This document shows, piece by piece, positions 9,959 through 32,500 of a DNA stretch of 64,000 nt; the first letter of the stretch is position 1; the number at the start of each line of letters is the position of its first letter. The notes below the pieces were generated by a model. The model was not told the origin of the DNA and ran no database searches. It saw nothing but the letters and a program-made list of their open reading frames with translations. This DNA comes from a virus. Taxonomy: Duplodnaviria; Caudoviricetes. The stretch is from the IMG/VR virus record IMGVR_UViG_3300002220_000406, positions 869 through 64,868 of that record; one strand, written 5' to 3'. The position numbers and the translations under genes are program-made.

Positions 9959-10160
9959 AAAATGAGCCTCTTCCTTTCAAAAACAGGCATTGGTAGGGGT
10001 ACTACGGGGGCACCGCAAAATGAGCCTCTCCGTTTGAAAATCGGCATTGGGTGGGGGTACTGGGGTGTAGCGGAAAATGAGCCTCTCCTTTCAGAATTTG
10101 GGGTTGGTACTGGTACTACGGGGTACCAGAAAATGAGCCTCTTCTTTTCAAAAATGGGCA
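9959..10160. repeat. degenerate tandem repeat, 4 copies, period 56-58 bp
   Basis: AAAATGAGCCTCT at 9959, 10017, 10074 and 10130, each followed by related TTT(C/G)A(A/G)AA..GGCA(TTGG)...GGTACT..GGG sequence; non-coding gap. Confidence 0.9.
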
Positions 10161-10389
10161 TACCACCCACCCACCACCACCCACCCGAGCCTCCGATCTG
10201 GTCTCCGAGAGCCTCCGAGCCGTCTCGATCTGACCCGAGCCCAGAGCCTCGAGGCTCGTATCTCCGAGACGCACTGCCAGTCCTCGAGCCAGATCTGCGA
10301 GGGCTCGAGCTCGTATCTCCGAGGGCAACGCTGCAATCCCTCGAGCGTCCTATCTCCGAGACGGAAGGATAGCCGGCTAACCTATCGGC

Positions 10390-10422
10390 AAAGAGAAAGG
10401 GCTGAGGACGAATCCCCAGCCC
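10390..10422 (-). terminator. rho-independent terminator ending the leftward early operon
   Basis: Minus strand GGGCTGGGGA-TTCG-TCCTCAGCCC followed by TTTCTCTTT; UUCG tetraloop. Confidence 0.8.
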
Positions 10423-10446
10423 ACAGCCCTCGAGGTTGAGAGCGAT

Positions 10447-10650
10447 CTATGCGCGCTCCCAGTACTTGCGGATGCGGTCACCCCAGATAATTGTGGGGCA
10501 CATAGTGTCCAGCCGTGAGTAGCACGCCCGAACGATTGGGACGTGAATCTTACAGACCCAGTCCACCAACCGCTCCGATCTGAGAGCCGAGACGAGCCAG
10601 AGAAGGTGGAGCGTGCCGATGTACGCCCCGAGCAGTATGTGCTTTGTCAC
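10447..10650 (-). CDS. hypothetical protein with hydrophobic N-terminus (67 aa)
   Basis: GTG start with GGAGG RBS; last gene before the terminator. Confidence 0.6.
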   Translation of the reverse strand: MTKHILLGAYIGTLHLLWLVSALRSERLVDWVCKIHVPIVRACYSRLDTMCPTIIWGDRIRKYWERA

Positions 10651-11075
10651 TCTGCCACCTCCGAGAACTCCTCATACGGAAAGCTATCGTCACCCTCGAG
10701 CACGATCTCCGAGGGCTCACCGACCACGGAGAGGCACGAGGGAGCCTCGAGCCTCGCCCACTGATAGATCGCCCCCTCGATGGTCTCGCAGTCCGTCACG
10801 TCGACCTCAACAAAGAACCGACACGGCACAGTGAAAACGACCCTCATAACACCCGAGGGTGGAGCCTCGAGCCTCGAGAAGGGCTCAGCCAATCCGAGCA
10901 GACTCTCGAGGGCGTTCCGGACTTCGGGAGCGAGCACACGCCACGCATCCTCGTCTGGGTATCCGTCTCTGTCTGCGGTGTAGTTGGCGAATTTCTCGCC
11001 AAGCTCCGAGAGCCACCAATTAGCCGTCATTCTCGCCTTTTCGGCTCTGTCCGAATCTAACGCTGCATTTATCAT
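10647..11075 (-). CDS. acidic early protein (142 aa); C-terminal part weakly resembles the small beta-beta-alpha family
   Basis: GGAGG RBS; RVVFTVPCRFFVEVDVTDCETIEGAI pattern. Confidence 0.65.
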   Translation of the reverse strand: MINAALDSDRAEKARMTANWWLSELGEKFANYTADRDGYPDEDAWRVLAPEVRNALESLLGLAEPFSRLEAPPSGVMRVVFTVPCRFFVEVDVTDCETIEGAIYQWARLEAPSCLSVVGEPSEIVLEGDDSFPYEEFSEVAE

Positions 11076-11368
11076 TTTTCACCTCCGAATTTAACCACAC
11101 GCTGAAGAAACGCCACCGAGGGCACATAGTACCACTGGGGCTCGCCACACTCGCATTCGCAATCCCACCCAGCCATCCAATGACCGCAAGGTGGACGCTT
11201 GACCAGATCCCACCCGAGCCTCCGCTTCGAGCGGTTGCCCCGACCCAGTTCTGCGACCCGAGCCAGTGGTCTATCATCACTCAGCACCTCCGCAGACTTA
11301 GCCACGGCAACCTCTGCCGAGAGTCCGCACTTCATCAGCGCACAGGCAAACTTACGAAATCTGCTCAT
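11072..11368 (-). CDS. early hypothetical protein (98 aa, Cys-rich C-terminus)
   Basis: GGAGG RBS; CGH...CECECG motif. Confidence 0.6.
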   Translation of the reverse strand: MSRFRKFACALMKCGLSAEVAVAKSAEVLSDDRPLARVAELGRGNRSKRRLGWDLVKRPPCGHWMAGWDCECECGEPQWYYVPSVAFLQRVVKFGGEK

Positions 11369-11558
11369 CCTTCACCTCCCAAGCCTCTCCGACTTCATAC
11401 TCATTGAAAACCTTGACCGAGCACCTATCCACCAACTCGTACAAGTGCCCATCCTCGTCAGCCTGTTCCACCAGCTTCTGGGCATCCTCGGCTGAGTCCG
11501 CTTCGACCTCGAGCTTGTGTGACTCGTACAGATCGAGCTCAACTAGAAACTTTGGCAT
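11352..11558 (-). CDS. small acidic beta-beta-alpha protein (DpnD/PcfM-like family member)
   Basis: MPKFLVELDLYESHKLEVEADSAEDAQKLV matches the repeated family motif; GGAGG RBS. Confidence 0.7.
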   Translation of the reverse strand: MPKFLVELDLYESHKLEVEADSAEDAQKLVEQADEDGHLYELVDRCSVKVFNEYEVGEAWEVKDEQIS

Positions 11559-11688
11559 CTTTCACCTCCTTGCGAAGTCTCTGGACTTCACGCACACGCT
11601 CCACCTGTTTGCGCTTATAGCCGACAGGGTCGAGCTTAGCCTCCCGAGCCTCTCGCACGAGTTGCTCGAACAAATCCTTGCTATTCAT
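11539..11688 (-). CDS. first gene of the leftward early operon (49 aa, helical)
   Basis: AGGAGG RBS, ATG at 11688, downstream of a TTGACA promoter. Confidence 0.65.
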   Translation of the reverse strand: MNSKDLFEQLVREAREAKLDPVGYKRKQVERVREVQRLRKEVKDAKVSS

Positions 11689-11725
11689 AGTTCCTCCTAA
11701 ATGCCCGAAAGAGTCGGACAAGGTG

Positions 11726-11754
11726 ACAGTATCAACCAAGGGCTGTTATGTCAA
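11726..11754 (-). promoter_or_regulatory. leftward early sigma70 promoter
   Basis: TTGACA, 17 bp, TACTGT with extended TG; shares ATTGACATAACA with the rightward promoter at 12850. Confidence 0.75.
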
Positions 11755-12239
11755 TCTCCGAGAACGACCCGAGCAAGGCTCTCCGCTTCAACTCGGGGGA
11801 GGGGGTTCTCTCGAGGGAGATCTGCGTGGAAGTGTTGAAACAGATTCACAAGTAAGTTCCGGATACCATCACGCAAAGCAGCCTCGGAAGATATGGAGGT
11901 CGGCTGAGCCGTCTCGAGGCGGTGTGTGTTCTGTAGAACGCTCAAGAGGTTAGGCAGAACTCCGTCCTTGATGTCCCGAGCTTTTAGCTTTTCGTTAATG
12001 ATCTCCGAAACGAGGTATCGGTTTTCTTCGTTGATTGTGGCGAAGTCTCGCACCTTCCTGTCTGCTAGGAGCAGTATCTCGGGCGTGACTGTTTCGGGCG
12101 TAAGTCTGGTTACTGTGTCACGGCTTACCCCGTGCCTAGTGGCTATATGTTCTTGTGTGGATATTTGCAGATATTTCTCCGCCAGAATCTCCGCCTTGGC
12201 TTGGTCGCTGAGGTTATGGTCTCCCTTATTGCGTCCCAT
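11751..12239 (-). CDS. putative terminase small subunit (N-terminal HTH)
   Basis: HTH-like TQEHIATRHGVSRDTVTRL, helical middle, RLETAQPTSI motif; size and late-type context fit TerS. Confidence 0.55.
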   Translation of the reverse strand: MGRNKGDHNLSDQAKAEILAEKYLQISTQEHIATRHGVSRDTVTRLTPETVTPEILLLADRKVRDFATINEENRYLVSEIINEKLKARDIKDGVLPNLLSVLQNTHRLETAQPTSISSEAALRDGIRNLLVNLFQHFHADLPRENPLPRVEAESLARVVLGD

Positions 12240-12515
12240 TTAGAAGTTTATGACCCCGAACTTTTTCGGCTTTGTGTGAGTCTTTACGAGCTGGTCTATT
12301 AGTGCGAGGAGTCGAAGGTTTACCACTTCGTAATCGGTGGCTTTTTGGGTTGCCTTGCCCAGTTCGACCTTTAGCTCGACTATTACCTCGTCACGAGCTT
12401 TTAAAGCCCCCTCGAGGGCTTCAATGAGCGTGTCTCGGGCATCGGGCTGGCTTGTCTGGGCATTGACCAGTACAGGGGCGAATAGAAGCAATGCGGTTAA
12501 GGTCAAGGTTTTCAT
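12240..12515 (-). CDS. exported coiled-coil protein, spanin-like (outer component candidate)
   Basis: Signal peptide MKTLTLTALLLFAPVLVNA|Q, coiled coil, overlapped with an upstream TM/coiled-coil gene. No lipobox Cys seen. Confidence 0.45.
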   Translation of the reverse strand: MKTLTLTALLLFAPVLVNAQTSQPDARDTLIEALEGALKARDEVIVELKVELGKATQKATDYEVVNLRLLALIDQLVKTHTKPKKFGVINF

Positions 12516-12802
12516 TTTTTCAAGGCTCTCCGAGCTTCGATGACTTTCTGGTCAGCGGTCTTGAGTCTGGTGTCGATCGCTTCGAGCTTTGCCTCGAGGC
12601 GTGCTTCAGACTGGCTGACCTTGGCATCGACCAAAGCCTCGACTGCGGAGAGGTCGAGAGGCGGTGGTGGCGGTGCCGGCTTCGAGCATTTAGCCGAAAA
12701 GAAGACCACAACAAGGACAGCCAGACACAGAACGAGCAGAGCGTTCTGTCGGATGAGGTTAAGAGCGTCGATGCCTATTCGGGCGAGAAGTGCGGTGAAC
12801 AT
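12512..12802 (-). CDS. membrane-anchored coiled-coil protein, spanin-like (inner component candidate)
   Basis: TM segment ALLVLCLAVLVVVFFS, poly-Pro linker, coiled coil. Confidence 0.5.
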   Translation of the reverse strand: MFTALLARIGIDALNLIRQNALLVLCLAVLVVVFFSAKCSKPAPPPPPLDLSAVEALVDAKVSQSEARLEAKLEAIDTRLKTADQKVIEARRALKK

Positions 12803-12807
12803 AAGGC

Positions 12808-12816
12808 ATTATAGCA
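12808..12816 (-). promoter_or_regulatory. extended -10 promoter, leaderless transcript of the spanin-like/terS unit
   Basis: Minus strand TGcTATAAT, 5 nt, ATG (12802); no RBS. Confidence 0.65.
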
Positions 12817-12850
12817 TATTTGCGCTTTTCTTAGAAGTGCTGACTGGGTA

Positions 12851-12880
12851 TTGACATAACAACAAAGAGCCGTTTAAGAT
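12851..12880 (+). promoter_or_regulatory. rightward early sigma70 promoter
   Basis: TTGACA, 18 bp, TAAGAT; GGAGG RBS and ATG at 12900. Confidence 0.75.
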
Positions 12881-12899
12881 GCCTTCGGAGGTTAGACAA

Positions 12900-13268
12900 A
12901 TGACAAATACAAAATTCGATATCACGGCTCAGCGTGGCTGGGTCGATCACCTACCCAGCTCAGCCAAGGGGCATAGCTTCGACCAAGCCCTTCTGGCGAT
13001 AGACTCGGAGGGCACTTCGGTTGGGCGTTTTTGGTGGCGTTGGACTCGAGGGGGCACTTGCCAGTGCATCGTTCAAATAAACGGCATTGGTCGAGGCTAT
13101 GGGAAGGCTGGGGGCTATGGCTACGACAAGAAAGCACAGGCTCTCGACAATGCCCTCGCAAGCGTGGGGATCAAGTGGAAGTCTGCCCACGACATCACGC
13201 CAGATTACGACCTTCAAACGATGTTCGAGGAACTGGACAACAAAGAGGTACAGGTCTACTGGGTCTAG
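12900..13268 (+). CDS. conserved phage early protein (GxGxAGGYGYDK motif)
   Basis: GRGYGKAGGYGYDKKAQALDNAL motif; first gene after the promoter. Confidence 0.75.
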   Translation: MTNTKFDITAQRGWVDHLPSSAKGHSFDQALLAIDSEGTSVGRFWWRWTRGGTCQCIVQINGIGRGYGKAGGYGYDKKAQALDNALASVGIKWKSAHDITPDYDLQTMFEELDNKEVQVYWV

Positions 13269-13297
13269 GGGCATCAGCCCCTACCCTTGGAGGAACA

Positions 13298-13783
13298 ATG
13301 AGAATAGAGAAAAATAAAATGATAACTTTTGAGTCGCTATACCGCCAGTTTGCTGGCGAGTCGGTCTATCTGGGCGAGGTGATGCACGAGCTAGTCTTTG
13401 AGAAGGGCTCGGAGGCGTATCACCCCAGCATCACTTGGACATTCACGCCACCCAACGAAGAAGAGGAGGAGGTGGTCATTGCCCTTGCCATCGAGGGAGA
13501 ACGAGTGACGGATTATTTCGGGGTCTCATCGCTTCCGGCACTGGCGTTAACCTTTTTGAGGGCTCTGGGCTATGACTGCTCAGAGATCGAGGAGAGGGAG
13601 GGGGATATCCCCTCCCCAATCACCTGTGCCGATTGTGGCTCGGGCGATGTCGTGCCACTGGCTGATGCGGTGTGGAACGGCAAGGAAGGACGCTGGAGCG
13701 TTGCGTGGGTCAACACTGAGGGATATTGCAAAGTCTGCGACAAAGACGGAGTGCAGCTAAGGAGGGCTTATGAGGCTATATGA
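13298..13783 (+). CDS. acidic early protein with C-terminal zinc ribbon (family B)
   Basis: GGAGG RBS; CADCGSGDV..LADAVWN....WSV...GYCKVCD. Confidence 0.75.
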   Translation: MRIEKNKMITFESLYRQFAGESVYLGEVMHELVFEKGSEAYHPSITWTFTPPNEEEEEVVIALAIEGERVTDYFGVSSLPALALTFLRALGYDCSEIEEREGDIPSPITCADCGSGDVVPLADAVWNGKEGRWSVAWVNTEGYCKVCDKDGVQLRRAYEAI

Positions 13784-14231
13784 TTTTGTGAAAGAAGACA
13801 GGACTGGGCTTGAGGGGATGCTCAAGACCTTTGCCCGAGCGGAGTGGGACGCTCGGGTGCGGAATGGTGAGACGCTGGACACTCTGGCGTTTTTAACTGA
13901 CCTTGCGGAGGCATTGGACGAGGAATTTTGTTCCGAGCTTGAGGCGGTGATGGTGGGGCTATCTGCCTACACCCACCTCTTCAACCGCTTCATCGAGCAC
14001 TACCTCGACCACGAGCTTTTTTTTGTGCTTGCGGTCGATCTCTGGAAGGCTTGCGGACATAAAGTGCCGGCAATCTGTGCCAAGTGTCACACAGGTGACC
14101 AGCTCGAGCTTTCGGGCGATGTTCGGGTGGTGAACGGCAAGGTCGAGATTATCAAGCTCGACATCCAGTTCTGCAACAACTGTGCGGAGCATACAACAGT
14201 TTTGGGGGTGGATTGTGAGCAGAGAAGATAG
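13770..14231 (+). CDS. acidic early protein with C-terminal zinc ribbon (family B)
   Basis: CAKCHTGDQL......FCNNC. Confidence 0.75.
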   Translation: MRLYDFVKEDRTGLEGMLKTFARAEWDARVRNGETLDTLAFLTDLAEALDEEFCSELEAVMVGLSAYTHLFNRFIEHYLDHELFFVLAVDLWKACGHKVPAICAKCHTGDQLELSGDVRVVNGKVEIIKLDIQFCNNCAEHTTVLGVDCEQRR

Positions 14232-14376
14232 GGAACGACTCGAGGATGCGGTGGAGTTGATTCTCGACAGGGACGGCACAGTGTTGCCGTCTCTGGTCGA
14301 GGATGCAATCCAATGGATTAGGCAAAACGGACTGGTCGAGGAAGCCAGAGCCGAAATTACAAGGAGACAGAAATGA
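14215..14376 (+). CDS. small helical early protein (53 aa)
   Basis: GTG at 14215, overlapped with neighbours. Confidence 0.55.
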   Translation: MSREDRERLEDAVELILDRDGTVLPSLVEDAIQWIRQNGLVEEARAEITRRQK

Positions 14377-14615
14377 AGACTAAAGTGATCTGCACCGATT
14401 GCAAGGGCGAGGATGTGCTTTTAGACACATTGGCGGTATGGAATGTGGAAAAGCAAGACTGGGTCGTGTTCGATGTGGCAGAGCCTAGAGCCTTTTGTAG
14501 GGACTGCGACACGGATGTTGAATGGGATATGGTGGACATCGAGAGCGGTGTCCCCCATCTCGAGAAAGTCATCAGTGATTTTGAGGAGGGAAACAATGGA
14601 CAAGAAACAAATTGA
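14373..14615 (+). CDS. standalone zinc ribbon (family B)
   Basis: CTDCKGEDVLLDTLAVWNVEKQDWVV...AFCRDCD. Confidence 0.75.
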   Translation: MKTKVICTDCKGEDVLLDTLAVWNVEKQDWVVFDVAEPRAFCRDCDTDVEWDMVDIESGVPHLEKVISDFEEGNNGQETN

Positions 14616-14775
14616 ACAGGTCAAGCGAGCGGTCTCCAGTGCGATCTATGCACTCTGGGACGCTTCGATGGTTCCGGAGGGTCATCCGGTAGGCAACAAG
14701 ATAGAATCGGCTCATTCGAGGCTGATAGAGGCAAGGCTGATGCTTAAAAAGCTGGAGGAGGCAAACAATGAATAA
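14596..14775 (+). CDS. small helical early protein (59 aa)
   Basis: GAGGAGG RBS, ATG at 14596. Confidence 0.65.
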   Translation: MDKKQIEQVKRAVSSAIYALWDASMVPEGHPVGNKIESAHSRLIEARLMLKKLEEANNE

Positions 14776-15262
14776 ATACACAGTACTGGCACGGACGATT
14801 ATGACTTACAAGGTCGAGGTTGAGGCAGAGACCGGTGACGATGCTCGAGACAAAATGATTGACCTTTGGGAGCAGTGGGGTACGGAAAAGTTTGCGGCTA
14901 TAGACGAGGAGGATTTTGAGGTGAGAGAAGCCATCGACCAAGGCGAGGTGGTGCTCGAAAAGCAATTGGTCTGCGAGGATTGCAAAAGCTCGGACTTGAC
15001 CCTCGAAGCTGAGGTTCAGTATCAAAACGGCACACTGATTGTCGGCAATCTGATTAGAGCCTTTTGTAACATTTGCGATGACATCTGCAACACGGAGGAA
15101 ATCGTGCCGCTTAAAACTTGGAATGTCTCGTGGTCAGAGCCCCATATCCGATGGGGGGTCAGAGGGGAAACTGCTGAAGAAGCCATACTGATCGCTCAGC
15201 GAGAGGGTCAGAGCGACACTGTCGAAGGACGGCACAACTATTGTGCGTGGGAGGCGGTATGA
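14768..15262 (+). CDS. modular early protein: family A domain + family B zinc ribbon + family A-like domain
   Basis: MNKYTV...YKVEVEAETGDDA; CEDCKSSDL...AFCNICD; KTWNV...VRGETAEEAILIA. Confidence 0.75.
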   Translation: MNKYTVLARTIMTYKVEVEAETGDDARDKMIDLWEQWGTEKFAAIDEEDFEVREAIDQGEVVLEKQLVCEDCKSSDLTLEAEVQYQNGTLIVGNLIRAFCNICDDICNTEEIVPLKTWNVSWSEPHIRWGVRGETAEEAILIAQREGQSDTVEGRHNYCAWEAV

Positions 15263-15597
15263 ACACTGCCACGGACACAGTGATGTTATGGCTGAGAGCG
15301 ACTGGGGAGGAATCCCCAGTTCGCTCCATCGTCAGAGCGTTCTACGATGAGATGAACCAGAACGGATGCGATTACTTCAACGATGGCACGCTGGAGGAGT
15401 TCACGGACAAATACCGCTCAGCGGTTCGAGAAAGGGTCTGGGACGCTTTTCTGGCTCTGGGTCACGACTACGCTGAGCCGGTGACCTATTTGTCCGTCTT
15501 GACAACAAGGGCTGTTTTGTTGCAGTGTGACTGGGCAGTCATCATCCGGCAAGTGGTCGGTGATGAGGGTCTAGTCTTTTTGGAGGTGGGAGAATGA
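15259..15597 (+). CDS. early hypothetical protein (112 aa)
   Basis: GGAGG RBS, ATG at 15259. Confidence 0.7.
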   Translation: MNTATDTVMLWLRATGEESPVRSIVRAFYDEMNQNGCDYFNDGTLEEFTDKYRSAVRERVWDAFLALGHDYAEPVTYLSVLTTRAVLLQCDWAVIIRQVVGDEGLVFLEVGE

Positions 15598-15695
15598 GAT
15601 TTATTTACGGATTAATTGTGACCGCCAGCTTTTTGAGCGGTTTGGCATTGGGGTTTATCGAAGGGCTCAGACACGCTGAGACCCTCTGGAGGTAG
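15594..15695 (+). CDS. 33-aa single-pass membrane peptide (not in the ORF track)
   Basis: ATGA coupling; MRFIYGLIVTASFLSGLALGFIEGLRHAETLWR fills the gap exactly. Confidence 0.6.
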   Translation: MRFIYGLIVTASFLSGLALGFIEGLRHAETLWR

Positions 15696-15697
15696 AA

Positions 15698-16006
15698 ATG
15701 GCAGAGTACAAAATACTGACAAATGAATTTGACCCACAAAGTTTTTTTGTGGAGTACCAGAAACGCTTCGCAGACTATGAGGGCGTGGCACAGATCTCTC
15801 TGGTGGACAGGTCGAAAGGACTGCACACCACGGAAGAACGGCTGCACTTGGTGCGAGTGACCAAGGTACACGATATGTTGGTTCGTGCTTCGTGCATAGA
15901 CCAAGCTGAGGCGATAGCAATAGGTGACCAGACTGGTGCGTGGTCGACTGTCATCTCGACAAATGTGACGGCTAAATTTTTAGGGGAGGATAAGGACAAT
16001 GCCTAA
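15698..16006 (+). CDS. early protein with C-terminal family A-like domain
   Basis: HLVRVTKVHDMLVRASCIDQAEAIA; GGAGG RBS. Confidence 0.7.
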   Translation: MAEYKILTNEFDPQSFFVEYQKRFADYEGVAQISLVDRSKGLHTTEERLHLVRVTKVHDMLVRASCIDQAEAIAIGDQTGAWSTVISTNVTAKFLGEDKDNA

Positions 16007-16484
16007 TTGGTGTAGCAATGAATTTTCGATTGTTGGGTCAGAGACGGACGCAAGGGAGTTTATGCGGAAGCATTTGACCCCAACCACTGACGAAGATACC
16101 GGTCTGCCCAGAACGGACGATAGACACGAAATGGACTTTAATCAGTTCATTCCAGAGCCTAGCGATCTAGGTGAAGGTGGGTGGTATAACTGGCGTATCG
16201 AGAACTGGGGTACGAAATGGCAACCGGCTTTTTTAGTTGCCAATAGACTGAAGGGCATCATCACTATTCAGTGCGAGACTGCTTGGTCTCCACCAAGACC
16301 CATCGCAGAAGCCATCTCCAAAATGTATCCCTTGATGGTGGTCAGACTCCAATACTTTGAGGAGGGAATGGACTACTGGGGCGTTTGCGTGTTCCAAGGT
16401 GGCGAGATGGTTGCCGCAGTATCAGCTGAGGGTGAATGGGAGAAGGACGAGGACTGGATGGAGGTGAGTGATGCCGAGAACTAG
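15999..16484 (+). CDS. YubB/DUF1281-like ferredoxin-fold protein
   Basis: MPNWCSN...DFN..IPEP...WYNWRIENWGTKW...ETAWSPP...YFEEG signature. Confidence 0.8.
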   Translation: MPNWCSNEFSIVGSETDAREFMRKHLTPTTDEDTGLPRTDDRHEMDFNQFIPEPSDLGEGGWYNWRIENWGTKWQPAFLVANRLKGIITIQCETAWSPPRPIAEAISKMYPLMVVRLQYFEEGMDYWGVCVFQGGEMVAAVSAEGEWEKDEDWMEVSDAEN

Positions 16485-16641
16485 GAACTGGGTGGTGCGT
16501 GTATACGACAAAGAGGGTGAGGTCTGCCATTCGTGGCAGATACCTCACAGGGCTGAGGATGAGGCTAGGAGAGAGGCTGAGGCTGATATCCGGCACATAG
16601 ACTGCGATGACTGGGTAATGATCGCAATGGAGGCACAATGA
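16471..16641 (+). CDS. small acidic early protein (56 aa; not in the ORF track)
   Basis: GGAGG RBS; MPRTRNWVVRVYDKEGEV...AEDEARREAE. Confidence 0.65.
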   Translation: MPRTRNWVVRVYDKEGEVCHSWQIPHRAEDEARREAEADIRHIDCDDWVMIAMEAQ

Positions 16642-16958
16642 TGAAGACATACGAAATAGAGGTGACAAGGAAGGGCAAACTTACGCTGAGGGCTGAGTCA
16701 GAAGAAGCACTTAATGAGATTTTGTTTGAGTCGGATGACGATATCTTCGATAACTGCATTACTCGGACAGATTGGGAGCTTCTGAATATTTCCGATGCTC
16801 CGGAGACCAAACGATACAGGGTGTTGGCACGAGAGGTCTGGGCGTATTCGGTGGATGCGGTCAGTGAAGAGGAGGCCGCCTTTCTGGTCGATAACGAGGG
16901 CTATAAGCACAAGACCGAAATGCGTGGTTTTGAGATTGAGGATATCGAGGAGGTTTAG
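16638..16958 (+). CDS. tandem two-domain family A protein
   Basis: KTYEIEVTRKGKLTLRAESEEAL... and KRYRVLAREVWAYSVDAVSEEEAA... Confidence 0.75.
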   Translation: MMKTYEIEVTRKGKLTLRAESEEALNEILFESDDDIFDNCITRTDWELLNISDAPETKRYRVLAREVWAYSVDAVSEEEAAFLVDNEGYKHKTEMRGFEIEDIEEV

Positions 16959-16959
16959 G

Positions 16960-17142
16960 ATGAATAAGTACAAGGTGTCTTTGGTCAAGCGTTTTAAGGT
17001 GGTCGTGGAGGCAAAGGATAGGGCTGAGCTGGAAGAGATGCTATTTGAGTCAAGCGATGAGATCGCTACGGATGAATGTCTGGATTATACGGACTGGGAT
17101 GTAATAGCCGAGTGGGCAATCGCTGACGAGGAGGAGGTTTGA
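16960..17142 (+). CDS. family A small acidic protein (60 aa)
   Basis: MNKYKVSLVKRFKVVVEAKDRAEL; shares LFESxD..D.C...TDW with the preceding gene. Confidence 0.75.
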   Translation: MNKYKVSLVKRFKVVVEAKDRAELEEMLFESSDEIATDECLDYTDWDVIAEWAIADEEEV

Positions 17143-17143
17143 A

Positions 17144-17332
17144 ATGCTATCAACGGAATGGACAAGGGCTAGGATGCAACAAGAGGGCATTGAGCTGGTG
17201 GATGCGTGGTGCTTGCACCAGCCGGACGATGAGGTTTGCGAGTGGGTGGTGGTAGGCAGTCCGGATTGCAAATGCGGATGTAACAACGACCACATTCACT
17301 GTCAACACGGATATATCATAGAGGTTGGATAG
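17144..17332 (+). CDS. small Cys/His-rich early protein
   Basis: WCLHQP...CKCGCNNDHIHCQHG; GAGG RBS. Confidence 0.6.
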   Translation: MLSTEWTRARMQQEGIELVDAWCLHQPDDEVCEWVVVGSPDCKCGCNNDHIHCQHGYIIEVG

Positions 17333-17340
17333 GAGGAAAA

Positions 17341-17523
17341 ATGAAAACATACACAATTGAGTACAGTTTGATCTATACAATGACCCAAGAGGTTGAGGCT
17401 GAGAACGAAGAGGCTGCGATTGACGCAGTGGAGGATAATGCCGGTGCTGGCATCGAGCACGATGTGAGAGTTACTGGTTTCACAGTCATAGATGAGTATG
17501 GAGAGGAGGAAGAAGATGAATAA
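17341..17523 (+). CDS. family A small acidic protein
   Basis: MKTYTIEYSLIYTMTQEVEAENEEAAIDAV; AGGAGG RBS. Confidence 0.75.
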   Translation: MKTYTIEYSLIYTMTQEVEAENEEAAIDAVEDNAGAGIEHDVRVTGFTVIDEYGEEEEDE

Positions 17524-17743
17524 GTATGAGATGAAATTTGAGGATCTGGATGAGAAGCATTTTGTGGTTTATTTCGATTGCCACGCAGACAGTGAGGAAA
17601 CGATTCAAGAGTCGGGTTATGTGTCGATCAGACAGGACGATGCGGATAAATGCTTCTATGTAGTGTCTTTCGACCACGAAGGCAATGTCCTGTCGCAGAC
17701 GGCAGTTCCGATGGCAGTGAGGGAGGGCAGAGATGAAGAATAA
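17516..17743 (+). CDS. small acidic beta-rich early protein (75 aa)
   Basis: GAGGAGG RBS, ATG at 17516. Confidence 0.65.
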   Translation: MNKYEMKFEDLDEKHFVVYFDCHADSEETIQESGYVSIRQDDADKCFYVVSFDHEGNVLSQTAVPMAVREGRDEE

Positions 17744-17966
17744 CTGGCTATTTGAGCAAACGGCAATGGGCAACTTGGGGACACCTTTTTGGGTGTCCTC
17801 ACAAAAGCCCAAGGTAAAGGTGTACAGGGTCAGATGGCACGAGTGTGCCGAGGCGATCGTGGTGGCTACAGACCCAGAGTCGGCTATCGACAAAGCGGTG
17901 GATGCCCCGAATGTCCGGTTTGATGGACGCTGCAACTATGAGGTCGAGGAGGTGGTAGGTGAATAA
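17733..17966 (+). CDS. family A small protein
   Basis: KVYRVRWHECAEAIVVATDPESAIDKA. Confidence 0.7.
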   Translation: MKNNWLFEQTAMGNLGTPFWVSSQKPKVKVYRVRWHECAEAIVVATDPESAIDKAVDAPNVRFDGRCNYEVEEVVGE

Positions 17967-18150
17967 GTACAAAGTATGGACAGAAGAAGTGATTATCAAG
18001 TATTGGGAAGTCGAGGCTGAGAGTCCGGAGTGGGCAGAAGCCCACATCAAGTCACTGCACGAGTACGACCCCACAGGGGATATGGGCGAGACAGTGGACA
18101 GAGTCAACTTTCAGATACAGACTGTAGAGGAGGTGAACAATGAGCAGTGA
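17959..18150 (+). CDS. family A small acidic protein
   Basis: MNKYKVWTEEVIIKYWEVEAESPEWAEAH. Confidence 0.75.
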   Translation: MNKYKVWTEEVIIKYWEVEAESPEWAEAHIKSLHEYDPTGDMGETVDRVNFQIQTVEEVNNEQ

Positions 18151-18316
18151 GCAGTTAGAGGCGATTCGATGTGCCTATGCAGATCTATTAGGTGCATACC
18201 AAGCCTACGAGCAGTCAGATATGCTTGCACACGATTGGAAGGCACACAGGCTGACGCTAGATGAGATGTTGGAATTATTTTCGTTTCTAAAGGAGGAAAC
18301 AGATGTACAAAATTGA
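18140..18316 (+). CDS. conserved small phage early protein (58 aa; not in the ORF track)
   Basis: MSSEQLEAIRCAYADLLGAYQA...HDWKAH..TL; GGAGG RBS. Confidence 0.7.
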   Translation: MSSEQLEAIRCAYADLLGAYQAYEQSDMLAHDWKAHRLTLDEMLELFSFLKEETDVQN

Positions 18317-18605
18317 AATTGATTGGCAAGAGTTTTACTTCGACACTTTGGAGGAGGCTCAGAAGGTCGCAAGCAGACATTACGAGGTCTCGGGTCACAG
18401 GCTTGCTATCGACAAAGTGATTGGCGAAAAGAAAAAGTACAACAGGTACATATTCAGAGTCGAGCAGTATAGCAACTATCCTGTGGTGGCAGAGTCAGAG
18501 GAAGAGGCGTGGGAAATAATAGGCGAGGCAGACCTTTCGGAACTCTTGCCCGAAGAGATGGAGTGGAACATAGTAGATGTGATTGAGGAGGGAAGCAATG
18601 CCTAG
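18303..18605 (+). CDS. two-domain early protein with family A C-terminal domain
   Basis: FYFDTLEEAQKVA and RYIFRVEQYSNYPVVAESEEEAWEII. Confidence 0.75.
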   Translation: MYKIEIDWQEFYFDTLEEAQKVASRHYEVSGHRLAIDKVIGEKKKYNRYIFRVEQYSNYPVVAESEEEAWEIIGEADLSELLPEEMEWNIVDVIEEGSNA

Positions 18606-18783
18606 ATATTTATACAGGATAGACACGAAGACGATCTGGGAGGGCTGGATAGAGGCTGACTCTCAAGAAGAGGCTGAAAAGAGAGCGGAGTCCGGAGACT
18701 GGGATGAGACTTGGGATTGCGACATTGACTATGTTTTTTTGACCGAGCTGGTGAAGCTCGATAAGGAGGATGAGGATGAGTAA
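18598..18783 (+). CDS. family A small acidic protein
   Basis: MPRYLYRIDTKTIWEGWIEADSQEEAEKRA. Confidence 0.75.
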   Translation: MPRYLYRIDTKTIWEGWIEADSQEEAEKRAESGDWDETWDCDIDYVFLTELVKLDKEDEDE

Positions 18784-19090
18784 ACAATACGATGCGATAA
18801 CAAAAGCGTTTTTGAAGATGCGGTTTGCACAGGACGGGAATCATTACTGCTCAATGTGCGTGTACTGCGAGGGGATGGCAGAGAAATACCTTGAAGAGGT
18901 GAATCTCGAGGACGAGAAGCTATTCGAGGTCGAGTTTGATGAGGTCACACGGAAGACTGTGAAGGTGTCTGCCAAGACCGAGGAGGAGGCCTGTCAAAAG
19001 GTTGCCAACCGGCAACACGATGACTCCTCGACCTACTATCATATGCATGGCTATAGGATTGAAAATTTGCACGCTGAGGAGGCTGAATGA
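18770..19090 (+). CDS. early protein with Cys-rich N-terminus and family A C-terminal domain
   Basis: YCSMCVYC; LFEVEFDEVTRKTVKVSAKTEEEACQKV. Confidence 0.75.
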   Translation: MRMSKQYDAITKAFLKMRFAQDGNHYCSMCVYCEGMAEKYLEEVNLEDEKLFEVEFDEVTRKTVKVSAKTEEEACQKVANRQHDDSSTYYHMHGYRIENLHAEEAE

Positions 19091-19368
19091 TCTGTCCAAT
19101 GTGTGATTCGGATGCTGCGGAGGAATTAGGCACACTGGGCAATGCCATCCATTACCGGTGTCGAGCGTGCGGTATGATGAGTTTTAGTGAGGTTCCGATG
19201 TTTACGGATACCGAAGCACTGTACCTATGCCGGAAGGTGGCTGCGTCTAGGGGCGGTAGAGCGTCCAAGGGTGGTGGAAGGAGGAAGATACCAGACCACG
19301 AGCTGACGGATGCTCAGAGAAAGCGTAGAGAGCGTGACGCAAGACGCAAAAAGAGAACCGAGCTTTAA
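19087..19368 (+). CDS. zinc ribbon with basic, putative DNA-binding tail
   Basis: CPMC...GTLGNAIHYRCRACG; SRGGRASKGGGRRK; K/R-rich end. Confidence 0.7.
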   Translation: MICPMCDSDAAEELGTLGNAIHYRCRACGMMSFSEVPMFTDTEALYLCRKVAASRGGRASKGGGRRKIPDHELTDAQRKRRERDARRKKRTEL

Positions 19369-19382
19369 AGCTCGGTTCTTTT
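19351..19382. terminator. bidirectional terminator / perfect 26-bp palindrome
   Basis: AGAACCGAGCTTT|AAAGCTCGGTTCT (19354-19379), flanked by an A-tract and a T-tract, at a convergent gene junction. Confidence 0.8.
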
Positions 19383-19646
19383 ATGTTCGATTACTATTTC
19401 CAGCTTGTTCTCCAGTCTGGAGATCGCTTGGTCTATGTGAGTAAACTGAAGCTCAATCCGTTTCTCAAACTCTGAAAAGAAGTCTGCGTTGTGGTGGATC
19501 GCCAAATTATTCTCGTGGCGTTCCAGCCGTCTTTGAAGAACCCGAAAGTCATCAATGCTACGAGTCGCTTTAGCCTCGAGCCTGACCAGCCAGACTACAA
19601 GTCCGACTCCAGCGGTTATGATGGCAACGGCAGCGGGCTCGATCAC
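19365..19646 (-). CDS. holin/hemolysin-like membrane protein
   Basis: N-terminal TM (AAVAIITAGVGLVVWLV) plus coiled coil, coupled to the endolysin. Confidence 0.55.
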   Translation of the reverse strand: MIEPAAVAIITAGVGLVVWLVRLEAKATRSIDDFRVLQRRLERHENNLAIHHNADFFSEFEKRIELQFTHIDQAISRLENKLEIVIEHKRTEL

Positions 19647-20521
19647 GGCTTATTCATCCTCTCTCTGTGGGCGTTGTTGGCTGATTGGCGATACCAAAAC
19701 ACTGCCAACCCTACAAGGGCTAGGGATAGGCAGAGGTAGAGGACTTGTGATGGTGTTAGGCGGTTGACTTGAGTCTCAACCATTGCCCCAAGGTTGATGC
19801 CCAGACCGGCTATGCCGGTGAGTGCTGCCCCAACCTTGGTAAACATCGAGGGGGAGGGGTCTGGAGCCGATGGGAGGTTAGGTGTAGGAGGTGCATCGGC
19901 TCCAGACCGCGTCACTGACTCTTGGGCAGTGACGCTGACGGAAAGGATACGCATGAAGTGGTCGGCATGCCCAGCGATCAAGGCTGCGTGGTCAGTGCCG
20001 TTGATAACCCTTCTGGCGTTTCTAAAATCTATTTTGGACTCGTTGATGTAGTCATTTAACTTCTTCCCTGTAAACCATCCTTGAGTCGAGCCTAGTACCA
20101 GCACCGCAAATGCGATCTCGTGGTCACAGGCTTGCTCCGGAAAGACAAGGAGGTCAAAGTGCTGACCAGTCCGTTTTTCAAAAGAGCTGACAATGTCGGG
20201 GCATTGCTTTCTAAGCTCGAGGGTTGCCTTCTTGTAGTTGTAATCCCAAGTAAGCTGGACATACCCTCTGCCGTAATACTTCTTGCCGTTGACCGGCTTG
20301 CCGTACTTCCGGCCTTTGCCTTTGCCGATCTCCTCGATCGGTCTCATTGTCCTTGCAGTTTCATGATAAGTGGTCGCAAGAAGATATGCAAGTACGCTCG
20401 GTGACACTTGGTGACACTCTATGCTACTCAGTAACAGGTTAAGGGCATCGACCTGCTTCTGGTTCAGCCGGCCAAAGGCAGACTTATATCCCGCAAAAAA
20501 CTTCTCACGATCCACTATCAT
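19643..20521 (-). CDS. endolysin, GH19 (chitinase-like/lysozyme fold), with two C-terminal hydrophobic segments
   Basis: LAYLLATTYHET, YYGRGYVQLTWDYNY and ARRVINGTD motifs; C-terminal VGAALTGIAGLGINLGA and VLYLCLSLALVGLAVFWY. Confidence 0.85.
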   Translation of the reverse strand: MIVDREKFFAGYKSAFGRLNQKQVDALNLLLSSIECHQVSPSVLAYLLATTYHETARTMRPIEEIGKGKGRKYGKPVNGKKYYGRGYVQLTWDYNYKKATLELRKQCPDIVSSFEKRTGQHFDLLVFPEQACDHEIAFAVLVLGSTQGWFTGKKLNDYINESKIDFRNARRVINGTDHAALIAGHADHFMRILSVSVTAQESVTRSGADAPPTPNLPSAPDPSPSMFTKVGAALTGIAGLGINLGAMVETQVNRLTPSQVLYLCLSLALVGLAVFWYRQSANNAHRERMNKP

Positions 20522-29248: not shown

Positions 29249-29542
29249 ATGGACGATCTGCAAGCGCTATTCGGGGAGGTAACGCAACTTCTTACCAAGG
29301 ATCGTCAGTCCAGCTACGGCGATCCGGGTGAGATGTGGGAAAGAAATGCTGTCTTGATGGGGCTTGTGGCTCAGAAAAGCCTCACCCCTGAGCAAGCGCT
29401 GCTTAACATTATAGCGGTCAAATTTGCCCGCCTTTGCCACAACCCCTCCCACCAAGACTCCATCAAGGACGCGATAGCGTACCTCGCGATCCTTTATCTC
29501 CGGACTAATCCGGAAGCTCCTTGTTCGCAAGAATCTCCATAA
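29249..29542 (+). CDS. DUF6378-like nucleotide-metabolism-associated protein
   Basis: DRQSSYGDP...VKFARL...H.DSIKDAIAYLA signature. Confidence 0.7.
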   Translation: MDDLQALFGEVTQLLTKDRQSSYGDPGEMWERNAVLMGLVAQKSLTPEQALLNIIAVKFARLCHNPSHQDSIKDAIAYLAILYLRTNPEAPCSQESP

Positions 29543-32500
29543 TCAGAGCCCTTTCCCTTGGACTGGCCTTTCTCATGAGCTCTTTGATCTTCTTGACGTG
29601 ATCCTTGTCTTTCAAAGACACCCTGTATTTGATTATCTCTTCGAGGTAAGTCAGCTTAAGGTCTGATTTCAGCCTCTTGCCTTGCTGTTCGGACAGTGTG
29701 CCCTTGGATACATGATACTCGACCAGCACCTCTGCCCGTGCTTCGTTGATATCGCCACGCCTTAAAGCCTGTTTGATCTCGCTCCTGACCCTCGCAGCTT
29801 CAACCTTGTCTTGATCCTTAAGGGGGGTCGTGAAGTTTGCCGGGAACATTTGCTGCGCAAGCGCCTCGGCGGTCGTGGGCTTGGGTCTCGTGAACATCTG
29901 ATGGATGTAGTTGAACCCGAAGAACCTCATGTACGGCTTTTGCTCGGTGACCGGCTTCAGTGTGACCGGGTCGATCAGCGGGGGAGCTTGGTACAAAACA
30001 CCCAGTCCCGGGACTGACTTGGCGATTTCTCCGATAAACTCCGAGGCGGCGCTATCTTTGTAGTTTCTGAGCTTGGCCTCTTCTTCGTAGAAGGTCGAGA
30101 CCAGTCTTTTAGCTGGGGTCAATACCCTTAACATACCACCCATAACGCTGCCCATCATCTTGGCACTGGCCTTCCAAAGCGCCTCGTCGGCATCCGGTTT
30201 TTCAGCCCTGTTGAACGCCGCGTCGTAGGCCGCCTTAACAGCCTCTACACCGGCAGACCTTGCGTAGTAATCGTACTCGATACTGGCAAAAGCTTGTATA
30301 GCCTCGTCAAGGCCCATGATTGGCTTGCCGGCTATGGCAAGTCGAATGTTGTGCGCAATGAAGAAGGATACGGACATTGGATACCACCTACGCACGTCTA
30401 TTGGAGCTTCGTCCTTGCCATTGACGTAGAGCGTGTACCACTCTTCATCATCGCCCTCGAACTCCGCAAGCATTGCCGCTGCAAGCAATACGCTTGACCA
30501 TGCGGCTACGCCTTGGGCCAGTGATGTGGATTTGTATCCCTTTCCGCCCAGCCTTTCCAAATCCAATGCGCCCGCGAGGAAGCCATTGGCAATGATTTTT
30601 GTTGTGGTATACGTAAAGCGCAGGTAAACCACCGGGTTGAGAAACACCGGCACGTACTTGTCGATCTGGTCGTACAAGGCCTTTGCCCATTGACCAGCTT
30701 TGTCGTCAACCGGCAGCGCAAATGTGGCCCTAAGCGCTCGTGTGACGGCCTCACGCACTTCTTCTTCAGTGAACAGCTCCGCAGTGCGTTGCTCGTCTAC
30801 AGCCTCTTTAAGTGTCGTGCCTTTCATTCTGGCGAACTGATCCAGCGTTGCCATCACAATCGCGGTTCTCATCTGAATCTCCTGCTCTCGTGCAAACGAG
30901 ATCTTTGCAAGAAACTCGGTCACCTTTGGCAGCTTGTCGGCGTATTTGTGCGCCTTGGCCATCAGGCCTTTCTTGCCTTCGCTTTCCGTCTCTTCGATGG
31001 GAATGTCAGCGATAATGCCCAGCTCCAGCCTGTGCCATTCTTCGGGGAACTCCGCAACTATACCCTCTGCAACTTGACGGTTGTTGGCCATCAAATAGCC
31101 ATAAGCCAGCCATGCAGTCTTTAAATTAACGTTGGGTGAGACTTCATCTGCGAACATTCCATATTTACCCCCGATAGTCCTGATAGCGGTGGCAACCACG
31201 TCGGTAAATCCCTGAATGCCGACCATCGAGAAGCCTTGGATAAAGTTAAACAGCTGCGTTATCCAGTTGAACACGAATGTTCCTCTCAAGAACGCATTGA
31301 ACTTGCCTATCAAGGTCGTTGGCTTTCTTGCGCTGCGAAGCATCTGGTTAAGTCGGGTCTGCTCCCTGCGCAGCGCAATTTTGTCCGCCTTGAGTTTTTC
31401 TAGGTCCTCCTTGTTCTTGCCTTGGGCCTCTGCCTTGGCCAATGCTCTGTCCTGGACAATCTCGTCCACGACCAACTTGGCCTCTCTGGCCTTGTTTCTG
31501 GCAGCCTCCAGGCCTATGCCAAACTGCTTGTCGATGTCTTTGAGCAAGGTGGTAATAGTCACAGCCTCTCCACCCGGCCTCATGGCCTCCAGCAGTTTGT
31601 TGGCGATGTACTGCACCACAATGTCGTCAGTCTTCTCAGCGATCTCGTCGAGCTGCTCAACCTTTCGGTCATGCTCTTCAACTATACGCTTGAGCTCACG
31701 GTTGCGCTTGGCTTTCTCTTTGGACTGCTCCTTCTTCGTGCGCATTTGAATGTCGGCACTGACCTCAGGCGCGGGGTCGCCCTCTTTCTTGAACTTCTCG
31801 ATCAGCTCGTTGCGTTTCACGACGTCCAGAAGGCGTTTAGCCTCGATTATCTTGCGTGCCGCCTCTACTTCGGGCAGACCATATTCGTCGGCGACCCTTT
31901 CAGCGAGGTTGGCAAGGTCTTGATCCGGAGCAACCGCAAGCACTTTCGCTATGTCGCTGGCCGTGGCATCAGCATTAAGCTCGTCAATCGCAGCGCTGGA
32001 GCCTGTACGCCGAGTCGCCTGAGACGCAAGCTTCTTAAGTGTGGCTCTACCCGCAGTCCTGCGTTGGCGTTCGTCTCTTCTGCGTTGTATCTCTTCGTCT
32101 GCCGCTGTCTCTGGATCAGCCTCATCGGCAAACTGCTCGATAAGATTCTCCCTCACGGCCTGTTCCCTGGCCTCTGCCAACGTCTCAAAGCCAAGGTTCA
32201 CGATATCGTCGATGAACTGTTCAACGCTAGGCCCGAACATTTCAGCGATCTGAGCAGCGAACTTGTCCGCATCGTAGTCCGGATCTTGATCAAATCCGTC
32301 CTGCATAAGCTTCGCGGCAACCTGTCCAAAGGCCTGCCGACGTGCCGGGGGCACGTACGCATCATTGGCCAAAGCGCCAAGTGGGCTATCCTGAGATGGG
32401 TTGCTAAGAAAGTCTCGGACCTCTTGTATGCTGTCGGCAAATCCCTGGGCCAGGTTTCTGTCCAGTCTCTGCCTGATGGTAAGCGATGTCTTTTTGACAG

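Follow-up and report, generated by a model that had tools for sequence, protein, structure and literature searches.

A stretch of 64,000 nucleotides from a phage genome (IMG/VR virus record IMGVR_UViG_3300002220_000406) carries an array of genes encoding one family of small acidic domains of about 50-60 amino acids. This stretch, called the window below, comprises bases 869-64868 of the 64,868-bp record, whose completeness is 71% according to CheckV. By profile comparison, the family comprises 13 domains in 11 genes, of which 12 are in a plus-strand operon at 14768-19090 and one is in a divergent operon at 11352. The family is assigned to a divergent branch of the DpnD/PcfM family (PF14207), and its genes are found in a block from which many short restriction sites have been removed. 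We estimate a probability of about one half that these domains form a panel of early-expressed, small acidic inhibitors or modulators of host proteins that handle nucleic acids.

Family membership and predicted fold

The membership of 17 candidate segments was assessed by a leave-one-out test. For each segment, a hidden Markov model (HMM) was built from those belonging to all other genes, and the score of the segment was compared with the scores of 500 of its own shuffles. Thirteen segments pass, as the real score is reached by only 0-4 of the 500 shuffles (z scores of 3.4-13.4). A second model, the external HMM A2, was built from 99 rows from outside the window and five window rows. The 13 copies are the following, with the leave-one-out score, the shuffles reaching it and other matches; identities are those to external orthologs (P numbers).

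11355-11558, minus strand: copy in a single-domain protein of 68 amino acids in the divergent leftward operon (gene 11352); 15.9 bits, 0/500; PF14207, 14.2 bits
14768-14947, plus strand: N-terminal copy in a protein of 164 amino acids (gene 14768); 14.7 bits, 0/500; external HMM, E-value 8e-13; PF14207, 14.6-17 bits
15104-15259, plus strand: C-terminal copy in the same protein; 14.4 bits, 0/500; external HMM, E-value 1e-5
15839-16003, plus strand: weak copy, C-terminal half of a protein of 102 amino acids (gene 15698); 7.8 bits, 1/500; no match to the external HMM and no external relative found
16638-16799, plus strand: N-terminal copy, LFES..D..C..TDW subtype, in a protein of 106 amino acids (gene 16638); 24.4 bits, 0/500; P0007, 71%, and P0006, 51%
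16806-16955, plus strand: C-terminal copy in the same protein; 9.4 bits, 1/500; external HMM, E-value 2e-9
16960-17139, plus strand: copy of the LFES subtype, single-domain protein of 60 amino acids (gene 16960); 8.0 bits, 4/500; P0009, 65%
17341-17520, plus strand: single-domain protein of 60 amino acids (gene 17341); 14.6 bits, 0/500; PF14207, about 17 bits
17808-17963, plus strand: C-terminal part of a protein of 77 amino acids (gene 17733); 8.5 bits, 1/500; external HMM, E-value 3e-7
17959-18147, plus strand: single-domain protein of 63 amino acids with a GTG start (gene 17959); 12.1 bits, 0/500; P0028, 68%
18435-18602, plus strand: C-terminal copy in a protein of 100 amino acids (gene 18303); 8.6 bits, 2/500; P0019, 71%, and P0060, 63%
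18598-18780, plus strand: single-domain protein of 61 amino acids (gene 18598), the modelled copy; 23.2 bits, 0/500; beta-beta-alpha-beta in AlphaFold
18914-19087, plus strand: C-terminal copy behind a Cys-rich N-terminus in a protein of 106 amino acids (gene 18770); 17.9 bits, 0/500; best direct PF14207 match, 22.8-23.4 bits

The external HMM recovers seven window copies other than its own five window rows, with E-values of 1e-5 to 1e-13. The C-terminal segment of 15698 is missed by this model and is therefore considered a weak copy. With regard to the rejected candidates, the leave-one-out scores of the C-terminal part of 10647, of 16468 and of 17516 do not differ from those of their shuffles, and the N-terminal segment of 18303 is likewise indistinguishable from its shuffles in the main family. 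Scanning the window and the entire 64.9-kb record in six frames revealed no additional copy.

These results confirm the expansion proposed in an initial annotation of this DNA, which had counted at least 11 genes and 13-15 copies of one small family; the further weak copies that it had placed at 10647 and 16471 receive no support from the leave-one-out test. The same annotation had described the domain as occurring alone, doubled or fused, which is what we observe: the protein encoded by 14768 consists of a domain, a zinc ribbon and a second domain, that of 18770 of a Cys-rich N-terminus followed by the domain, and that of 16638 of two copies, and there are N-terminal extensions in genes 15698, 17733 and 18303. 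The LFES..D..D.C..TDW motif said to be common to 16638 and 16960 is also borne out (BLASTP E-value of 4e-11) and recurs in the external orthologs P0006, P0007 and P0009. Between them, the window copies are only 14-25% identical in pairwise comparisons. The features that they have in common include an N-terminal M-x-K-Y motif, the length of the domain and strand 3.

The profile of the copies was searched outside the window, as had been proposed as a check; of 1.84 billion protein cluster representatives, 341 were retrieved as relatives at E ≤ 1e-3. Most of these relatives are 50-65 amino acids long, and some chains hold 2-4 copies. Among 104 aligned external relatives, 37 match PF14207 at E ≤ 0.01 (best E-value, 6.4e-18), and the multi-copy relatives P0010 and P0048 exceed the Pfam cut-off. 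The direct PF14207 scores of the window copies are all below the gathering cut-off of 25 bits. The highest is that of the C-terminal copy of 18770 (22.8 bits with hmmscan and 23.4 bits in the six-frame search), followed by 17341 (about 17 bits), the N-terminal copy of 14768 (14.6-17 bits) and 11352 (14.2 bits); the remaining window copies do not match PF14207.

AlphaFold2 models of 18598 exhibit a beta-beta-alpha-beta arrangement, with a pLDDT (predicted local distance difference test) of 67 when the paralogs were used and of 73 when the 104 relatives were used. The ESM Atlas cluster that is structurally nearest to 17341 is named 'DpnD/PcfM family protein', is 87% PF14207 and has a template modelling (TM) score of 0.78; among the look-alike clusters listed for 17341, all are viral wherever taxa are recorded. 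Thus, the structure prediction and the profile searches agree with the resemblance to DpnD/PcfM suggested earlier, though as a divergent, sub-threshold branch only.

PF14207 includes dpnD of the Streptococcus pneumoniae DpnI cassette and pcfM of the Enterococcus plasmid pCF10. The window copies share with it a length of about 46-60 amino acids, the N-terminal M-x-K-Y...V, the V-E-A-E-S-x-E-E-A junction between strand and helix, and the predicted fold. In contrast to the PF14207 systems, 13 copies are present in one phage, some are doubled or fused to zinc ribbons, and all remain below the Pfam cut-off. In the DpnI locus, dpnD encodes a "protein of unknown function" (PMC4471560), so membership in PF14207 explains nothing about the mechanism. 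In our literature search, which covered PF14207, DpnD-PcfM and pcfM with pCF10, no paper was found that deals with what this family does. Seven longer fused relatives were found, with partners that include DUF7007 and a Cas12f-like zinc ribbon, which are too few for a functional inference.

Similarity to T7 Gp2

The T7 protein Gp2 is an acidic protein of 7 kDa that competes with DNA and whose binding site on RNA polymerase is the beta-prime jaw (PMC3778932). Its residues R56 and R58 are invariant and dock on this jaw, and binding to RNA polymerase is lost in the R56E mutant (PMC3778932). Like Gp2 (64 amino acids; PF16857; PDB codes 2WNM, 2LMC and 4LLG), the window copies are small, acidic and phage-encoded and have a predicted beta-beta-alpha-beta core. 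Unlike Gp2, the window copies lack the arginines that dock on the jaw, and most of them have a longer loop from the helix to strand 3. Moreover, Gp2 is encoded by a single middle gene, whereas the window family forms an array.

The family was compared by hhalign with a Gp2 set consisting of T7 gene 2 (V01146) and 22 collected Gp2 homologs. The two profiles align over 45 co-linear columns with a probability of 86% (P = 4.7e-6), and with a probability of 88% when the window rows are removed. The aligned columns comprise strand 1 (KKY.V in the family, KKF.ATV in Gp2), strand 2 with the helix (V.V.A.S..EA and V.I.A.T..EA) and strand 3 (aromatic-E-V and G-F-E-V). The score of 30.6 compares with 8.4 +/- 1.9 for 200 column-shuffled Gp2 alignments (maximum 17.4) and with 15.9 for the reversed alignment. 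On an HMM of external sequences only, Gp2 sequences reach 6-14 bits, a score that for most of them is equalled by 0-1 of 300 shuffles.

There are limits to this link. Two thirds of the hhalign score come from the strand-2/helix motif, which is generic: a profile search of PDB sequences matched only designed TIM barrels, PurS and ribosomal eL20/LX. HMM-to-sequence searches do not join the two families, the family HMM finds nothing in the T7 genome, and structure searches give no clear match to a solved structure. Based on these profile comparisons, a fold shared with Gp2 is probable and a distant homology is possible, while the family is not placed within the Gp2 family itself.

The closest approach to Gp2 is at the N-terminus of 18303.

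18303-18434, plus strand: possible fourteenth copy, a compact Gp2-like mini-domain whose counterpart in the related contig L010 is a free-standing gene of 45 amino acids; not supported as a member of the main family by the leave-one-out test

This segment matches PHROG 1307, 'RNA polymerase inhibitor', with an E-value of 0.004, and Pfam PF16857 with an E-value of 0.05 (14 bits, for a cut-off of 27); apart from this sub-threshold match, no window copy matches PF16857 directly. By hhalign, it scores 19.5 against Gp2, compared with a maximum of 14.1 for shuffled columns, with a probability of only 16%. The Gp2 HMM reaches an E-value of 0.012 over the whole protein of 18303, with no single significant stretch. 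In addition, one external four-copy relative weakly matches RpoY, of the RNA polymerase epsilon subunit family (E-value of 4e-4).

At the residue level, none of the 13 copies has an arginine at the equivalents of R56 and R58; the position of R56 is D or E in eight copies and N, T or A in the rest. The acidic strip of Gp2 (E21, E34, D37, E38, E41, E44 and E53) is better represented, with acidic equivalents of D37 in 12 of the 13 copies, of E34 and E38 in eight each, of E41 in six, and of E44 and E21 in five each. This is suggestive, although acidic helices are common.

The resemblance over the whole core, the matches of the 18303 N-terminus to PHROG 1307 and PF16857, the RpoY match and the partly conserved acidic strip could all be accounted for if at least one copy were a true Gp2-type inhibitor or modulator of the host RNA polymerase, acting at the beta-prime jaw or in the DNA channel and switching transcription away from host genes. 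We consider this unlikely. The arginines invariant in Gp2 are conserved in no copy, every direct score is sub-threshold, and 13 copies would be hard to explain for a single target. Furthermore, ten large open reading frames (ORFs) of the window were compared with Pfam and neither an RNA polymerase nor another family was recognised; as no phage RNA polymerase is recognised in the window, a full shut-off of the host polymerase would be self-defeating.

Restriction-site-poor block, cassette turnover and probable function

The features that make up the context of the array are the following.

10141-19400, no strand assigned: block nearly free of short palindromic restriction sites (observed compared with expected counts), holding both divergent operons of small genes
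12879-19368, plus strand: operon of about 24 mini-genes encoding 33-164 amino acids, with overlapping stops and starts and a GGAGG ribosome-binding site on nearly all of them
12851-12880, plus strand: sigma-70-type promoter-like site at the head of the operon, TTGACA-18 nucleotides-TAAGAT (10/12 in a consensus scan; pattern match only)
19354-19379, no strand assigned: perfect hairpin with an 11-bp stem between convergent operons, a probable bidirectional terminator

The minus strand carries nearly all genes of the window, with the single exception of this plus-strand operon. The genes at 14768-19090 occupy the distal two thirds of this operon of 6.5 kb, whose mini-genes are translationally coupled, and the hairpin separates it from convergent lysis genes. 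A short leftward operon (10647-12802) diverges from it and holds one family copy as well as a weakly helix-turn-helix-like protein (sub-threshold in Pfam).

Within the block, CATG occurs once for 30 expected occurrences, GGCC twice for 37, CGCG once for 17, ACGT twice for 19 and GCGC five times for 18. CCNGG and GGNCC are absent from it, whereas their densities outside the block are 3.8 and 2.8 per kb, and GCNGC is also nearly missing from these sharply bounded 9 kb. The density of such sites is 1-3 per kb at 11-19 kb and 25-45 per kb elsewhere, and they are not depleted in the remainder of the window. The coding sequences of the operon contain 13 sites, compared with 129 +/- 9 under permutation of synonymous codons (minimum of 101 in 300 trials), which shows that selection acts on codon choice. 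As an observation of its own, CTCGAG is enriched in the block: it has 21 sites there (2.27 per kb), and the remaining 54.7 kb contain 15 (0.27 per kb). TCGA is about twice as dense in the block.

Since selection has stripped the block of many restriction sites of 4 or 5 bp, we infer that it is exposed to host nucleases and restriction before the phage protects itself, as would be expected of an early or first-entering region. The first-entering or pre-early regions of T5 and T7 are blocks of small genes that are read by the host polymerase and that encode host-takeover and anti-restriction functions. The window block resembles them as a block of small genes, presumably also read by the host polymerase. 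It differs in that no homolog of Ocr, of A1/A2 or of another known pre-early gene was found, in that its stepwise entry is only conjectured, and in that it also holds leftward genes, including the putative helix-turn-helix regulator.

The array is old, with single cassettes that come and go. The contigs L010 and L011 belong to a related phage (endolysin 62% and regulator 42% identical) and carry a similar array of 6-8 family copies, which adjoins a homolog of the DUF1281_C gene described below. For 12 of the 13 window copies, the closest relative is found outside the window rather than among the paralogs inside it, and the external orthologs are 43-71% identical, which makes them about as conserved as the endolysin. 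Because the copies have their own orthologs conserved to this degree, we interpret the array as old and maintained and not as the product of a recent burst of duplication. The L010 array lacks ACGT, CGCG, GCGC, CCNGG and GGNCC and retains CATG and GGCC, a pattern that would be compatible with a different host restriction repertoire. The whole 15.5-kb contig L010 contains no CCGG, compared with 24 occurrences in the window block and 219 elsewhere in the window, which suggests that the host restriction pressure differs.

At shorter distances, 16957 is directly followed by 17142 in a contig of run X8 that is about 98% identical, so that gene 16960 is removed exactly and a stop codon is recreated. 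Both junctions of this cassette carry the same 10 nucleotides, GAGGAGGTTT, and ribosome-binding-site junctions of this kind may serve as microhomology for the loss and gain of cassettes. Other metagenome contigs skip or replace 17393-18303, 17411-18292, 18042-18447 and 18124-18258. These alignments document single cassettes gained and lost between strains.

Such turnover bears on two other explanations. In the first, the copies would be subunits of one hetero-oligomer, or tandem or dimeric partners in a beta-sheet, rather than independent effectors, as the initial annotation had also envisaged. The tandem copies in 14768 and 16638 and the external chains with 2-4 copies are what would be expected of a domain that forms dimers or multimers. 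Nevertheless, gene 16960 is cleanly missing from a nearly identical strain, relatives skip or replace further parts of the array, the related phage carries a different subset of copies, and the copies differ strongly in sequence. As cassettes are present or absent individually between strains, an obligate complex is unlikely, and our results lend the idea no support.

In the second, these genes would be fast-turnover accessory ORFs with little or no function, in which an easily evolved strand-helix design combines with the constraints of overlapping ribosome-binding sites. This would agree with the gain and loss of cassettes, with a strand-2/helix motif generic enough to match designed TIM barrels and PurS, and with ribosome-binding sites that encode the acidic tails. 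It is, however, just as improbable as the hetero-oligomer, for the leave-one-out and external-HMM tests beat composition-matched shuffles, the M-x-K-Y motif, domain length and strand 3 are common to the copies as well, the orthologs are as conserved as the endolysin, the profile has 341 representative relatives, and the avoidance of sites at the codon level places the operon under selection.

We favour a panel of small inhibitors, which the presence of many copies in an operon almost free of restriction sites renders probable at the level of about one half given above. More specifically, a panel of anti-defence proteins or DNA mimics is plausible from genomic context rather than from a direct result, given an operon that runs from promoter to terminator, the site-poor block, the weak similarity to the Gp2 profile and the gain and loss of single copies. 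According to this model, the block would enter or be expressed early, before the phage is protected from host nucleases. The copies would act stoichiometrically, each as a small inhibitor or modulator of a different host protein, by plugging the surface with which that protein binds nucleic acids; candidate targets are RNA polymerase, restriction or other defence nucleases, and toxins. The conserved acidic start of the helix (A-E-S/T-x-E-E-A), which aligns with the negative strip of Gp2, could be the face that competes with DNA, and the variable loop after the helix, together with strand 3, could be the face that docks on the specific target.

Two observations bear on the idea of DNA mimicry. 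The Shine-Dalgarno sequence of the next gene (GAGGAGG or GGAGG) sits, at almost all gene junctions, in the last 3-6 codons of the upstream gene, where it encodes Glu-Glu followed by Val, Gly or Ala. The acidic tails noticed in the initial annotation are indeed present, but as their codons hold the Shine-Dalgarno sequence of the following gene, they are at least partly a by-product of translational coupling. The tails largely reflect this coupling, so that taken alone they are no evidence for DNA mimicry, and this part of the earlier argument is weakened. The proteins are also acidic overall, with isoelectric points of 4.0-5.1. Secondly, neither Pfam nor PHROG gave a match to DNA mimics of the Ocr/ArdA type and none appeared in structure searches, although absence from these lists does not exclude a functional analogy. 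The fold of the window copies is predicted to be a small alpha/beta unit.

A more ambitious proposal would unite the DpnD/PcfM-like proteins and T7 Gp2 in one superfamily of modular acidic 'groove plugs'. The window would then hold a 13-member panel delivered from a restriction-site-free, first-entering segment, in which the host enzyme that is neutralised differs from paralog to paralog (RNA polymerase, restriction or defence nucleases, RNase toxins) and GAGGAGG junctions provide the microhomology for cassette swaps. We regard this as speculative and rather unlikely in its entirety.

Genome setting and implications

The window also encodes a large terminase, an endolysin, a primase/helicase and a replication initiator. 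Among 50,697 GenBank phage records, blastn with the operon gave no match, and tblastn gave no protein match to the terminase and no match to one external family relative. As neither the operon at the nucleotide level nor the terminase at the protein level is matched, the uncultured phage, most of whose genome lies in the window, is very divergent. A search for related loci in IMG/VR with the 16638 protein found no relative. Runs from three further studies (hydrocarbon, freshwater and organism-labelled) contain the full stretch in identical form, and some of them may be the source of the record; no RNA run is among the sequencing runs listed as holding it.

Further features in and around the array are the following.

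12240-12802, minus strand: lysis-like genes on the left flank of the plus operon, for a signal-peptide protein and a transmembrane coiled-coil protein
13298-15103, plus strand: second paralog family, zinc ribbons (C.DC ... FC..C), in genes 13298, 13770 and 14373 and in the middle of 14768; pairwise BLASTP E-values of 6e-7 to 2e-3
14942-15103, plus strand: zinc ribbon (CxxC ... CxxC) between both copies of 14768; BLASTP E-values of 7e-6 to 8e-4 to the ribbons of 13298, 13770 and 14373
15999-16484, plus strand: non-family gene within the array with a DUF1281_C domain (Api92-like, ferredoxin-like); Pfam E-value of 1.4e-10, above the cut-off; homolog in the related L010 array
19365-20521, minus strand: lysis-like genes on the right flank, for a small membrane protein and the endolysin
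29505-47795, minus strand: single ORF of 6,096 amino acids, in which Pfam recognises only a ddrB-like ParB domain (E-value of 9e-20) and a marginal GNAT acetyltransferase domain

Lysis-like genes are thus found on both flanks of the plus operon. In L010, the homologs of both flanks adjoin each other, from which it follows that the position of the operon differs by rearrangement. With regard to gene starts, the ORF at 15241-15597, as listed mechanically, begins without a ribosome-binding site; this gene more probably starts at 15259, with an ATG that shares the sequence ATGA with the stop codon of 14768 and is preceded by GGGAGG. The ORF at 14182-14376, also listed mechanically, has no ribosome-binding site at its listed start either, and its start is uncertain.

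The similarity to the Gp2 profile, the site-poor context of the operon, the tails encoded by ribosome-binding sites, and the old paralogs with cassette turnover are new here. One lesson is a caution: since acidic C-terminal tails can come from overlapping ribosome-binding sites, charge alone should not be used to label a protein as a DNA mimic. Conversely, a sharply bounded purge of restriction sites is a strong marker, readable from the sequence by itself, of DNA that is exposed early to host nucleases, and it could be used in other uncultured phages.

PF14207 is widespread among phages as well as mobile elements, and our literature search revealed no function for it. In the window, 13 diverged natural variants of this scaffold are found together, and their context is indicative of the first minutes of infection. 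Together, the similarity to Gp2 and the partly conserved acidic strip lead to a concrete hypothesis, in which the domain would be a small acidic plug for nucleic-acid-binding surfaces, and the array offers a ready-made panel for pull-downs and anti-defence screens.

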